Source: a virus | Taxonomy: Duplodnaviria; Heunggongvirae; Uroviricota; Caudoviricetes | Reading direction: 5' to 3' (one strand) | Virus record (IMG/VR): IMGVR_UViG_2675903409_000002 | Length of the DNA: 16,817 bases | Shown here: piece by piece, positions 2,551 to 15,700 of the stretch | Numbering within the stretch: position 1 is the first letter of the stretch | Layout: each line of letters opens with the position of its first letter | Made by a program: the position numbers and the translations under genes | The notes under the pieces: model-generated | Told to the model about the DNA's origin: nothing | The model's input: only the letters and a program-made list of their open reading frames with translations | Database searches by the model: none

Positions 2551-5116
2551 CGTCCACCTCCGGAGAACAGGCCACCATCACGCATCTGTGTCTGAATTTC
2601 ATCACGGGCACCCTTGCGGGCCATGTCATACACGGCCTTCATCATCTGTGGACCTGGCAGACCATTCGTACCGTCGTTCTGAATCACCACGTGATTGTTC
2701 TGATTAAAATTAATGCCTTCAGCCCGCCGCATCTGCGCCGGACTTCCGGCACCGCCCACATAACCACCTTCCGCATAGCCGCGCATCAGCCGGTAGAGAT
2801 TCCCCACGCCAATCCGGCTGGTTGCCTCCTTCGTGAAGACAAATTCACCACGGTGAACAATCCCCGCTGGCTCATATTTGCCGCCGGTTCCCGTAAATCC
2901 CCCGGTTGCAAAATGGAATTTCACCGCAGCGGCCTGAATGGCTGTACCACCTGACGCGGATGCGCCGCCACCAACAGCCCCGCCAATGGCGCTGNNNNNN
3001 NNNNNNNNNNNNNNNNNNNNNNNNNNNNNNNNNNNNNNNNNNNNNNNNNNNNNNNNNNNNNNNNNNNNNNNNNNNNNNNNNNNNNNNNNNNNNNNNNNNN
3101 NNNNNNNNNNNNNNNNNNNNNNNNNNNNNNNNNNNNNNNNNNNNNNNNNNNNNNNNNNNNNNNNNNNNNNNNNNNNNNNNNNNNNNNNNNNNNNNNNNNN
3201 NNNNNNNNNNNNNNNNNNNNNNNNNNNNNNNNNNNNNNNNNNNNAGCTGGTCTTCAGCCGCCCAGGTCTTTTTCTGCTCTGACATGACGTTATTCAGCGC
3301 CAGAGGATTATCGCCATACTGTTCCTTCAGGCGCTGTTCCGTGGCTTCCCGCGCTGCCTGCCGGTCAGTCAGCCCCCGGTTTTTCGCATCAATGGCTGCC
3401 CGTTTTGCCCGTTGCTGCTGTGCGAATTTATCCGCCTGCTGCGCCAGCGCATTCAGGTGCTCCTGATACGTAACCTTGTCACCAAGTGCAGCCAGCTGGC
3501 GTTTGTACTCCAGCGTCTCGTCTTTATGCGCCAGCAGGGATTTCTCCTGTGCGGACAGCTGGCGACGTTGTGCCGCCTCCTCCAGTACCGCGAACTGACT
3601 TTCTGCCTTCCACAAATCCCGGCGCTGCTGGCTGATTTTCTCATTCGCTCCGGCATGCTTCTCCAGCGTCCGGAGTTCTGCCTGAAGCGTCAGCAGGGCC
3701 GCATGAGCACTGTCTTCCTGACGATCGCCCGCATACACCTTCACGCCGGACTGTTTCGGCTTTTTCAGCGTCGCTTCATAATCCTTTTTCGCCGCCGCCA
3801 TCAGCGTGTTGTAATCTGCCTGCAGGATTTTTCCGTCTTTCAGTGCCTTGTTCAGTTCTTCCTGACGGGCGGTATATTTCTCCAGCGGCGTCTGCAGCCG
3901 TTCGTAAGCCTTCTGCGCCTCTTCGGTATATTTCAGCCGTGACGCTTCGGTATCGCTCTGCTGCTGCGCATTTTTGTCCTGTTGACGCTGTTGATCTACC
4001 CTCTTTTGGGCTGCATCCCGCTCCAGGCGTTTTTTTTCACGATCATCCCAGTAACGCGCCCGTGCTTCATCGTTAACGAAATAATCATCCTTGCGCAGAT
4101 TCCAGATGTCGTCTGCTTTCTTAAACGCAGCCTCTGCCTTAATCAGCATCTCCTGCGCGGTATCAGGACGACCAATATCCAGCACCGCATCCCACATGGA
4201 TTTGAATGCACGTGCAGTCCTGTCTGCCCAGGTCTCCAGCGTGCCCATGTTCTCTTTCAGGCGGCGGGTCTGGTCATCAAACCCTTTCGTTGCGGCCTCG
4301 TTCGCCGCCTGCAATGCCCCGGCTTCATCGCCGGAACGCTGCAACTGAGCAACATACGCAATCTGCTCCGCCGTCACGTTATGGAACTGGCGTGCCATCG
4401 CCGTCAGCCCCGACGTCGGGTCTGTGGTCAGCTTCCCGAAGGCTTCAGCGACCTTGTCCACCTCCACGCCGGATGCATAGGAGAAACGCGCCACACTCTG
4501 GCTGATGGACGCAATCTGAGCCTCACCGCTTACCCCCGCCTTAACCAGTGCGCTGAGTGACTCGCTGGTCTGGTTAAACGTCAGCCCTGCCGCCTGCCCG
4601 GCTCTGGACAGGACCAGCATACGATCTGCCGTCAGTCCCGCCTGATTACCGGAAAGGACCAGCGTTTTGTTGAAATCGGACAGGGTTGAGTTGNNNNNNN
4701 NNNNNNNNNNNNNNNNNNNNNNNNNNNNNNNNNNNNNNNNNNNNNNNNNNNNNNNNNNNNNNNNNNNNNNNNNNNNNNNNNNNNNNNNNNNNNNNNNNNN
4801 NNNNNNNNNNNNNNNNNNNNNNNNNNNNNNNNNNNNNNNNNNNNNNNNNNNNNNNNNNNNNNNNNNNNNNNNNNNNNNNNNNNNNNNNNNNNNNNNNNNN
4901 NNNNNNNNNNNNNNNNNNNNNNNNNNNNNNNNNNNNNNNNNNNGCTTTCTGTGCAGCCAGCGCCTGTCGGCTCAGCGACTGTTCAACGACTGCCGCTGTT
5001 TTTTTCGCATCACTTTCCGTACCGGAAAAATGACGCCTGACTCTGGCCATCTGCTCGTCAAATCTGGCCGCATCCAGACTCAAATCAACGACCAGATCGC
5101 CTACCGGTTCAGCCAT
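2547..5116 (-). CDS. H: Tail tape-measure protein H; interrupted by two N-runs, and the three visible segments are in three different reading frames
   Basis: N-terminal segment MAEPVGDLVVDLSLDAARFDEQMARVRRHFSGTESDAKK (from 5116); middle segment ...MLVLSRAGQAAGLTFNQ...EQKKTWAAEDQ (4620 down to N-run); C-terminal segment ...AAVKFHFATGGFTGTGGKYEPAGIVHRGEFVF...GGGR ending at TGA 2549-2547 overlapping the M start. Span 2570 nt against 2562 nt expected for 853 aa. Confidence 0.85.
2995..3244. other. N-run inside H (C-terminal third)
   Basis: 250 consecutive n. Confidence 1.
4694..4943. other. N-run inside H (N-terminal part)
   Basis: 250 consecutive n. Confidence 1.
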
Positions 5117-11240: not shown

Positions 11241-14924
<3,684 letters not shown>

Positions 14925-14950
<26 letters not shown>

Positions 14951-15470
14951 TCAGCAACCCCGGTATCAGTTCATCCAGCGCGGCTGCTTTGTTCATGGCT
15001 TTGATGATATCCCGTTTCAGGAAATCAACATGTCGGTTTTCCAGTTCCGGAAAACGCCGCTGCACCGACAGGGGGATCCCGTCGAGAATACTGGCAATTT
15101 CACCTGCGATCCGCGACAGCACGAAAGTACAGAATGCGGTTTCCACCACTTCAGCGGAGTCTCTGGCATTTTTCAGCTCCTGTGCGTCGGCCTGCGCACG
15201 CGTAAGTCGATGGCGTTCGTACTCAATAGTCCCTGGCTGGAGATCTGTCTCGCTGGCCTGCCGCAGTTCTTCAACTTCCCGGCGCAGCTTTTCGTTCTCA
15301 ATTTCAGCATCCCTTTCGGCATACCATCTTATAACGGCGGCAGAGTCATAAAGCACCTCATTACCCTTGCCACCGCCTCGCAGAACGGGCATTCCCTGTT
15401 CCTGCCAGTTCTGAATGGTACGGATACTCGCACCGAAAATGTCAGCCAGCTGCTTTTTGTTGACTTCCAT
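14925..15470 (-). CDS. Nu1: Terminase small subunit Nu1 (181 aa)
   Basis: ORF track 14925..15470; MEVNKKQLADIFGASIRTIQNWQEQGMPVLRGGGKGNEVLYDSAAVIRWYAERD...; ATG at 15470-15468. Confidence 0.96.
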
Positions 15471-15489: not shown

Positions 15490-15615
15490 AACAGAGAAAG
15501 GAAACGACAGAGGCCAAAAAGCCCGTTTTCAGCACCTGTCGTTTCCTTTCTTTTCAGGGGGTGTTTTAAATAAAAACATTAGGTTACGGCGAAGAAGAAC
15601 GGAAACGCCTTAAAC
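15490..15615 (-). other. cosB: terminase (Nu1) binding elements R1, R2, R3 with an intervening AT-rich IHF-type segment
   Basis: Three copies of the CGTTTCC-type element read on the minus strand: near 15495-15510 (CTGTCGTTTCCTTTCTCTG, R1), 15541-15556 (inverted, GAAAGGAAACGACAG, R2) and 15592-15610 (GGCGTTTCCGTTCTTCTT, R3), at lambda-like spacing upstream of Nu1. Confidence 0.8.
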
Positions 15616-15647
15616 CGGAAAATTGTCATAAATAGCGAAAACCCGCG

Positions 15648-15659
15648 CGCCTTCCGCCC
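15648..15659 (-). other. cosN: 12-nt cohesive-end segment of the joined cos site, variant sequence
   Basis: Minus strand reads ...CAGGTTACG | GGGCGGAAGGCG | CGCGGGTTTTCGCTATTTATGA.... Both flanks match the lambda cos junction from memory; the 12-mer reads GGGCGGAAGGCG where lambda has GGGCGGCGACCT. Confidence 0.75.
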
Positions 15660-15700
15660 CGTAACCTGTCGGATCGCCGGAAAGGACCCGCAAAATGATA
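15660..15700 (-). other. cosQ-containing region on the right-end side of cosN (position approximate)
   Basis: Positional homology to the last ~40 bp of the lambda right end (…CCGGAAAGGACCCG…GATCCGACAGGTTACG); the exact cosQ element is not delimited. Confidence 0.45.

Follow-up and report, generated by a model that had tools for sequence, protein, structure and literature searches.

A recurrent natural allele of the right half of cosN in lambda-type prophages

The lambda-type cos region and its cosN junction

The stretch of DNA analyzed here, called the window below, comprises 16,817 nucleotides from the IMG/VR virus record IMGVR_UViG_2675903409_000002. It corresponds to the left arm of the lambda late operon in reverse orientation (Nu1, A, W, B, C, D, E, FI, FII, Z, U, V, G, T, H, M, L, K, I) and is 96 to 98% identical to lambda-like phages across more than 90% of its length. 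The Nu1-to-I structural module is open, masked stretches aside. Four runs of 250 to 251 N (positions 1450-1699, 2995-3244, 4694-4943, and 13480-13730) distort the calling of open reading frames (ORFs): L and K are seemingly fused into one 470-aa ORF (809-2221), the tape-measure gene H seemingly falls into three ORFs (4646-5116, 2872-4620, and 2547-2924), and the A ORF has 642 codons instead of 641.

The window contains the features of a lambda-like cos, namely, the left half of cosN with its flanking CG pairs, cosQ, R3 at a fixed spacing, and Nu1 and A directly downstream. The architecture (cosQ-cosN-I2-cosB) and spacing are the same as in the lambda cos, the end of which is common to phage 21. 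All features lie on the minus strand and are numbered with cosN bp 1 at window position 15659. The heptamer GGGTCCT (15683-15689; positions -30 to -24 from cosN bp 1) has the same sequence as its lambda counterpart and is invariant in our alignments. From the Cue and Feiss literature, we take it to be cosQ, the packaging-termination signal located ~24 to 30 bp upstream of the top-strand nick. cosQ is described as a highly conserved element of 7 bp (PMC4669245). The cosN nicking site (15646-15661) consists of 12 bp with a 2-bp CG on each side (CG-GGGCGGAAGGCG-CG), and both CG pairs are intact. Its left half (bp 1 to 6, GGGCGG, 15654-15659) is identical to that of lambda, N15, and phage 21. In the alignment, its right half (bp 7 to 12, 15648-15653) reads AAGGCG, compared to CGACCT in lambda.

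The I2 spacer between cosN and cosB (bp 18 to 50, 15610-15642; extent from PMC4856287) matches lambda except for one base, A35C, at window position 15625. This substitution lies at the edge of the critical bp 30 to 35 block, the replacement of which is lethal in lambda (PMC4856287). Since A35C recurs in 10 loci with the variant cosN and in 2 loci with the canonical cosN, it is a natural polymorphism and is presumably tolerated. The combination of A35C with the variant cosN was absent from the complete E. coli genomes searched, where the best match to a 72-mer reached 71/72. Next to I2, the R3 site of cosB (bp 50 to 65, 15595-15610, AGGCGTTTCCGTTCTT; R3 coordinates from PMC9026076), at which TerS binds and anchors TerL, is identical to lambda in both sequence and spacing.

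The Nu1 gene (14925-15470, minus strand) encodes a TerS of 181 aa with lambda specificity. The protein is 98.3% identical to its lambda counterpart and differs from it only by K48R, A75T, and L132I, all of which are outside the recognition helix (residues 17 to 24) and the wing (residues 31 to 39) named in PMC9026076. The A gene (TerL; 13022-14950, minus strand, 642-codon ORF) encodes a gpA 99.5% identical to that of lambda, with T151S, D185E, and L404R in the readable part and with residues ~407 to 490 masked by the N-run at 13480-13730.

As the lambda reference, we used a record that runs across cos (PV340536), along with a phage 21 record in which the cos subsites are annotated. The cosN 12-mer on the minus strand (15648-15659) is GGGCGGAAGGCG, within the junction ACG-GGGCGGAAGGCG-CGC. 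It is preceded by GACAGGTTACG and followed by CGCGGGTTTTCGC (longer flanks, TCCGACAGGTTACG on the left and CGCGGGTTTTCGCTATTTATGA on the right), and it is found once within the window, for a chance expectation of 0.01. The canonical 12-mer GGGCGGCGACCT aligned at the homologous position in lambda PV340536, DE3, 2H10, Turner, and an Stx1 phage; the DE3 record labels the same 12 bp "cos site," and NC_001416 and phage 21 OL657228 both begin with this sequence. PhiR70_1 was the exception among the aligned phages, with GGGCGGAGACCT, and has A7 in common with the window. The original prediction, made from the letters of the window, was that the 12-mer differs from lambda at positions 7, 8, 9, 10, and 12 and that the left half is conserved. 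Both points are borne out by the alignment with lambda, DE3, and phage 21, in which 7/12 positions are identical. Aligned to the lambda ends and to other lambdoid cos junctions, the 12-mer reads GGGCGGAAGGCG and not GGGCGGCGACCT.

Between positions -100 and +185 of cosN, divergence from lambda affects 17 of the 279 positions that lie outside the right half (6.1%), whereas inside the right half it affects 5 of 6. As this excess goes far beyond the local rate (binomial P = 4.8e-6), the clustering of differences in the right half is real and is not ordinary local divergence. The twofold rotational symmetry of cosN amounts to 8/16 bp in the window versus 10/16 in lambda: the symmetric nick-proximal pairs (-2, -1, 2 / 11, 13, 14) are retained, 3/10 and 6/7 are no longer symmetric, and 4/9 has become so. 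The cosN sites of PhiR70_1 and LLS/mEp213 also score 8/16 symmetric bp, and such symmetry describes a lambda-like cosN more than it strictly defines one.

Recurrence of the AAGGCG allele

A search of 5,426 complete E. coli genomes with a 38-mer unable to seed on canonical sites located the 12-mer GGGCGGAAGGCG in 155 of them. The 166 places, all matched at 100% identity, comprise 150 on chromosomes and 16 on plasmids. The sources of these carriers include human, pig, poultry (chicken), cattle, sheep, mouse, and water, and enterotoxigenic (ETEC) strain H10407 is among them. A cos-spanning 72-mer gave 5,535 lambda-type places in 3,464 E. coli genomes. The AAGGCG allele represents ~3% of the lambda-type cos sites in E. 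coli and is present in ~3% of E. coli genomes.

In IMG/VR, the exact 32-bp junction was present in 14 contigs, and the AAGGCG hexamer was present in at least 77 contigs when the left flank was relaxed and the canonical allele was excluded. Other right halves were rarer: CAGGCG was seen in 4 contigs, AGACCT and CAGACG in 3 each, GAGCGT and TGACCT in 2 each, and AAGCGT, AAGGCT, CGACCG, and CTGACG once each. AAGGCG therefore accounts for at least 77 of the ~95 non-canonical contigs; intermediates are rare, and the spectrum is strongly bimodal. When the 12-mer was left degenerate, 130 canonical sites and two single-base variants were among the matches listed. In the contigs of GTDB, which holds one genome per species and thus few E. 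coli genomes, the exact 32-mer had zero matches and a degenerate scan returned canonical sites alone. Two GenBank phage records have the allele, PhiR46_1 (PV340565) and YDC107_1 (CP025712, classified as Ravinvirus), and no record starting at the variant cos was found in the collections searched. Of the non-canonical alleles in close relatives of lambda, AAGGCG is the most frequent. The occurrence of the same junction in 155 E. coli genomes, at least 77 IMG/VR contigs, and two phages supports one of the two readings initially offered for it, that of a naturally divergent cohesive end. The 12-mer is not unusual, since it is common among lambdoid prophages with Nu1 and A close to those of lambda.

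We also considered how the hexamer may have arisen. A micro-inversion is not convincing, as the reverse complement of CGACCT (AGGTCG) matches AAGGCG at only 4/6 positions. Stepwise change or import from another lineage fits better, because one-step neighbor alleles exist in IMG/VR (CAGGCG in four contigs, AAGGCT in one, and AGACCT in three).

Within ~240 loci, the sole left-half variant was L091 (IMGVR_UViG_2778261513_000005), which reads GGGCGACGACCT, with position 6 changed. The canonical lambda cos and its flanks were also seen in records from a cyanobacterium (L144, Raphidiopsis brookii D9), an actinobacterium (L145, Aeromicrobium sp. PE09-221), and a Firmicute (L146, a 39.8-kb "plasmid unnamed3" of Alicyclobacillus fastidiosus). 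In these three cases, lambda DNA contamination or vector carry-over seems more likely than a real prophage.

Published genetics of the lambda cos describe cosN as functionally asymmetric (PMC4669245, Feiss et al. 2015). Mutations in the left half are severe, G2C lowering the yield ~10-fold, whereas many mutations at bp 7 to 12 have a minimal effect and the symmetric C11G has none; the right half adjoins cosB. Right-half changes had no measurable effect on cos cleavage in that work. Natural differences at bp 7 to 12 are common, and the authors conclude that the hexamer is not under selection; the conserved elements are cosQ, the left half of cosN, and the CG pairs on its two sides, and these CG pairs are reported to be under selection (PMC4669245). 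N15 and phiD326 differ from lambda at positions 9 and 12, and Gifsy-1 differs at positions 8, 9, and 11 (PMC4669245). The cohesive end of LLS/mEp213 is reported as GGGCGGCGCGCT (PMC12315714).

We confirmed by sequence that the cohesive end of N15 is GGGCGGCGTCCG, and likewise confirmed right-half precedents at position 7 (PhiR70_1) and at positions 9 and 12 (N15). Precedents at position 8 (Gifsy-1, PMC4669245) and at positions 9 and 10 (LLS/mEp213, PMC12315714) are taken from the literature. The N15/phiD326 end is a natural right-half variant that has T12G in common with the window. N15 is unlike the window in that just two positions (9 and 12) depart from lambda and in that its cosB is of a simple single-R type; its TerS is divergent, being 54% identical to lambda Nu1. 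The identity of N15 gp2 to lambda gpA was 87% in our computation and is quoted as 64.9% in PMC4669245, and we do not rely on this figure. Gifsy-1 and LLS/mEp213 carry other hexamers with two to three changes, versus five in the window, and LLS/mEp213 has G10 in common with it.

Since the AAGGCG allele recurs in ~3% of E. coli genomes and its changes are confined to the half of cosN that tolerates change, it is an ordinary natural polymorphism, a fairly frequent one, and one more allele of a known kind. Right-half variation as a phenomenon has already been published, and GGGCGGAAGGCG is present in public records without being annotated there. In a full-text literature search, the 12-mer was matched by a single paper, an unrelated one on plants. 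Vahanian et al. 2017 (Virology 509:140), which is reportedly a dedicated survey of natural cosN variation, may list it.

Association with flanks, cosB, and terminase genes

AAGGCG was found with a lambda-type cosB at 62 loci, with a second cosB at 19 loci, and with a third cosB at 4 loci, and 14 kinds of left flanks accompany it. The second cosB is phage 21-like: in ETEC H10407, R3 is 1 bp off the annotated phage 21 R3, and the N-terminal 60 residues of the prophage Nu1 share 88% identity with phage 21 gp1 and 57% with lambda-type Nu1. The H10407 prophage has the same 12-mer as the window and a gpA 99.7% identical to that of lambda, but it differs from the window in its 21-type cosB and Nu1 DNA-binding domain and in its divergent left flank. 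H10407, the reference ETEC strain (NC_017633.1, L156), contains two variant-cosN places, and the one examined has a different lysis cassette. The reciprocal pair, a 21-like cosB with the canonical cosN, occurs in phage IdasGreatGrand, so that all four combinations of cosN and cosB exist. The third cosB, carried by four variant-cosN contigs of IMG/VR, reads GGACTGGTGGTGGTTTTGTT at bp 46 to 65 and loosely resembles GGACATGAGGTTGTTGTT, the R3 region of N15. This cosB may be that of the group which Feiss et al. call "Monarch."

The terminase genes do not distinguish the carriers. Nu1 and A were intact in every carrier examined, and the gpA of ten carriers was 98.9 to 99.7% identical to lambda gpA. 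In alignments of variant and canonical loci, no residue private to the carriers was found in Nu1 (71 sequences) or in gpA (58 and later 65 sequences). Three Nu1 haplotypes are common to both cosN alleles, and the very same gpA of 641 aa is found at a variant-cosN locus (L156, H10407) and at two canonical ones (L060 and L143). The allele is independent of the cosB/TerS type, and there is no co-variation with the terminase.

The allele is also found outside integrated prophages. PhiR46_1, YDC107_1, and the ~46-kb plasmid prophages pEC21Z151-46K and pRHBSTW-00124_4 have GGGCGGAAGGCG, the right flank, and R3 as in the window, together with a lambda-type Nu1 (93%) and gpA (99.5%). In contrast to the window, these telomere phages and plasmid prophages are linear plasmids (telL/telR, ParAB) and not integrated lambda-type prophages, carry two left-flank substitutions (GGCAGGCTACG), and are without A35C; their cos is unannotated in the records. 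The packaging, head, and tail module of PhiR46_1 is complete and of lambda type; this phage was deposited with a propagation host and is viable according to its GenBank description. The 16 plasmid matches in E. coli are 46-kb relatives of PhiR46_1. In these N15-style telomere prophages of ~46 kb (L150/L159, L151, L152, L153, and the 16 plasmid matches), a lambda-type module is present instead of the N15 terminase and simple cosB. The telomere prophages with the variant cos are thus mosaics, in which a Ravinvirus backbone is combined with the structural genes of lambda.

Predicted cleavage of the variant site and annealing of its ends

In lambda, TerL is anchored by TerS sitting on R3, and the distance from cosN to R3 is critical (PMC9026076; PMC4856287). 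At the variant site, Nu1 (TerS) would bind R3/cosB at the fixed spacing and anchor gpA (TerL), which would introduce a top-strand nick 5' of bp 1 and a bottom-strand nick between bp 12 and 13. As anchoring at cosB would position the enzyme, the bottom-strand nick would be largely indifferent to the sequence of bp 7 to 12, which would leave the hexamer free to vary. Cutting by a lambda-type (or 21-type) terminase would generate self-complementary 12-nt 5' ends, GGGCGGAAGGCG, that would cyclise normally with each other; their predicted self-annealing energy is -18.6 kcal/mol, versus -19.0 kcal/mol for lambda. Because every changed position has a precedent and all of the elements reported to be important are kept, we consider it highly probable, judging from the sequence, that the window contains a lambda-type prophage cos with a natural recurrent cosN allele and that this site is cut by an ordinary lambda-type terminase. 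The allele is very probably functional, and we infer cutting at the homologous positions and normal packaging. Some caution is called for, since the five right-half changes occur jointly and include position 7, by the center of symmetry, and position 12, by the bottom-strand nick, and the published tests considered here cover fewer changes.

Concerning the vectors and helper phages based on lambda, the original prediction had raised the possibility of a packaging incompatibility. An impairment of packaging by the lambda terminase is not supported: besides the lack of effect of right-half changes on cleavage, with the lambda terminase, which showed no cosN specificity, the yield was the same for the cosN of lambda and that of N15 (PMC4669245, Table 4). 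G12, beside the bottom-strand nick, is experimentally tolerated, since the N15 end GGGCGGCGTCCG shares this base and the lambda terminase handles the N15 cosN. The part of the concern that stands, as a prediction, is the annealing with lambda ends. The window is outside the canonical GGGCGGCGACCT end group of lambda and phage 21, with 7/12 identical overhang positions, and it is also outside the N15/phiD326 end type, with which G12 is common and positions 7, 8, 9, and 10 differ. Pairing between lambda and variant ends is predicted to extend over 6 bp (the left half) at -9.5 kcal/mol, compared to -19.0 kcal/mol for lambda ends with each other and -15.3 kcal/mol for lambda with N15 ends. The sole plausible functional effect predicted for the allele would thus be poor annealing with lambda ends, in recombinant concatemers or in vitro, and not a packaging defect.

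Such poor annealing raises the question of whether CGACCT and AAGGCG define separate cohesive-end compatibility types, for which cutting would be normal and particles with hybrid ends would fail to cyclise. The hexamer would then be a partial barrier, or a small barcode of reproductive isolation or incompatibility, among co-circulating and freely recombining lambda-like phages, and the allele would perhaps be kept by selection and not by drift. This would explain the dominance of a single allele five steps removed from the canonical one and the rarity of intermediates, in line with the bimodal spectrum in IMG/VR, and it agrees with the limited pairing of hybrid ends and with the report that even a 2/12 end mismatch (lambda with N15) lowers the yield (PMC4669245). 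However, the allele turns up in free combination with different cosB types, left flanks, and terminase haplotypes, so no suppression of recombination is visible. Moreover, the bimodality is equally expected from shared ancestry and from recombination in the conserved sequence that flanks the hexamer. We regard separate compatibility types as unlikely.

Most carriers are integrated prophages, as would be the case if the changes had inactivated the cos of a cryptic prophage that no longer packages its DNA. Yet decay is expected to yield different sequences in each lineage, whereas one hexamer is found in 166 places and in at least 77 contigs, in diverse contexts. The intact Nu1 and A of all carriers examined, the Nu1-to-I module that is open in the window apart from its masked stretches, and the presence of the allele on N15-style plasmid prophages and in deposited phage genomes also argue against decay, which we hold to be very improbable.

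A variant site that depends on an altered TerL, and that would stay uncut by the authentic lambda terminase, was suggested by the gpA substitution T466I, which is present in 12 of 16 carriers versus 13 of 54 canonical loci. Residue 466, which is masked in the window, is presumably within the C-terminal endonuclease region, given the general organization of gpA. The enrichment could hint at a mild co-adaptation, but linkage over ~2 kb explains it equally well and is the simplest explanation, and the substitution is neither necessary nor exclusive: four carriers keep T466, and I466 is also encoded at 13 canonical-cos loci. The full-length gpA common to both alleles argues in the same direction, as does the lack of cosN specificity reported for the lambda and N15-hybrid terminases (PMC4669245). 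In the window, gpA N509 and E515 are as in lambda, which speaks against an adaptation of the enzyme at these residues. The two are the sites of published cosN-suppressor mutations. A co-adapted nuclease thus appears most unlikely. Finally, the clustering of the differences is all that would speak for a sequencing, assembly, or engineering artefact at the phage-end junction, and this other reading of the original prediction, an engineered or erroneous junction, is rejected with near certainty by the identical junction found within closed chromosomes and plasmids, which come from many laboratories and from many sequencing platforms, across the 155 genomes, at least 77 contigs, and two phage records.

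If the variant site is cut by an ordinary lambda-type terminase, as we favor, DNA carrying it, whether a phage or a cosmid, would be expected to be packaged by a lambda-type terminase and is predicted not to anneal or be ligated to lambda ends. Searches or oligonucleotides based on the exact lambda 12-mer would miss the termini of phages with the variant cos. The allele extends the published view that bp 7 to 12 are unconstrained, since it changes five of the six bases together. Its occurrence with the same terminase and with at least two TerS/cosB specificities is consistent with the positioning of TerL being set by cosB anchoring and by the left half of cosN.
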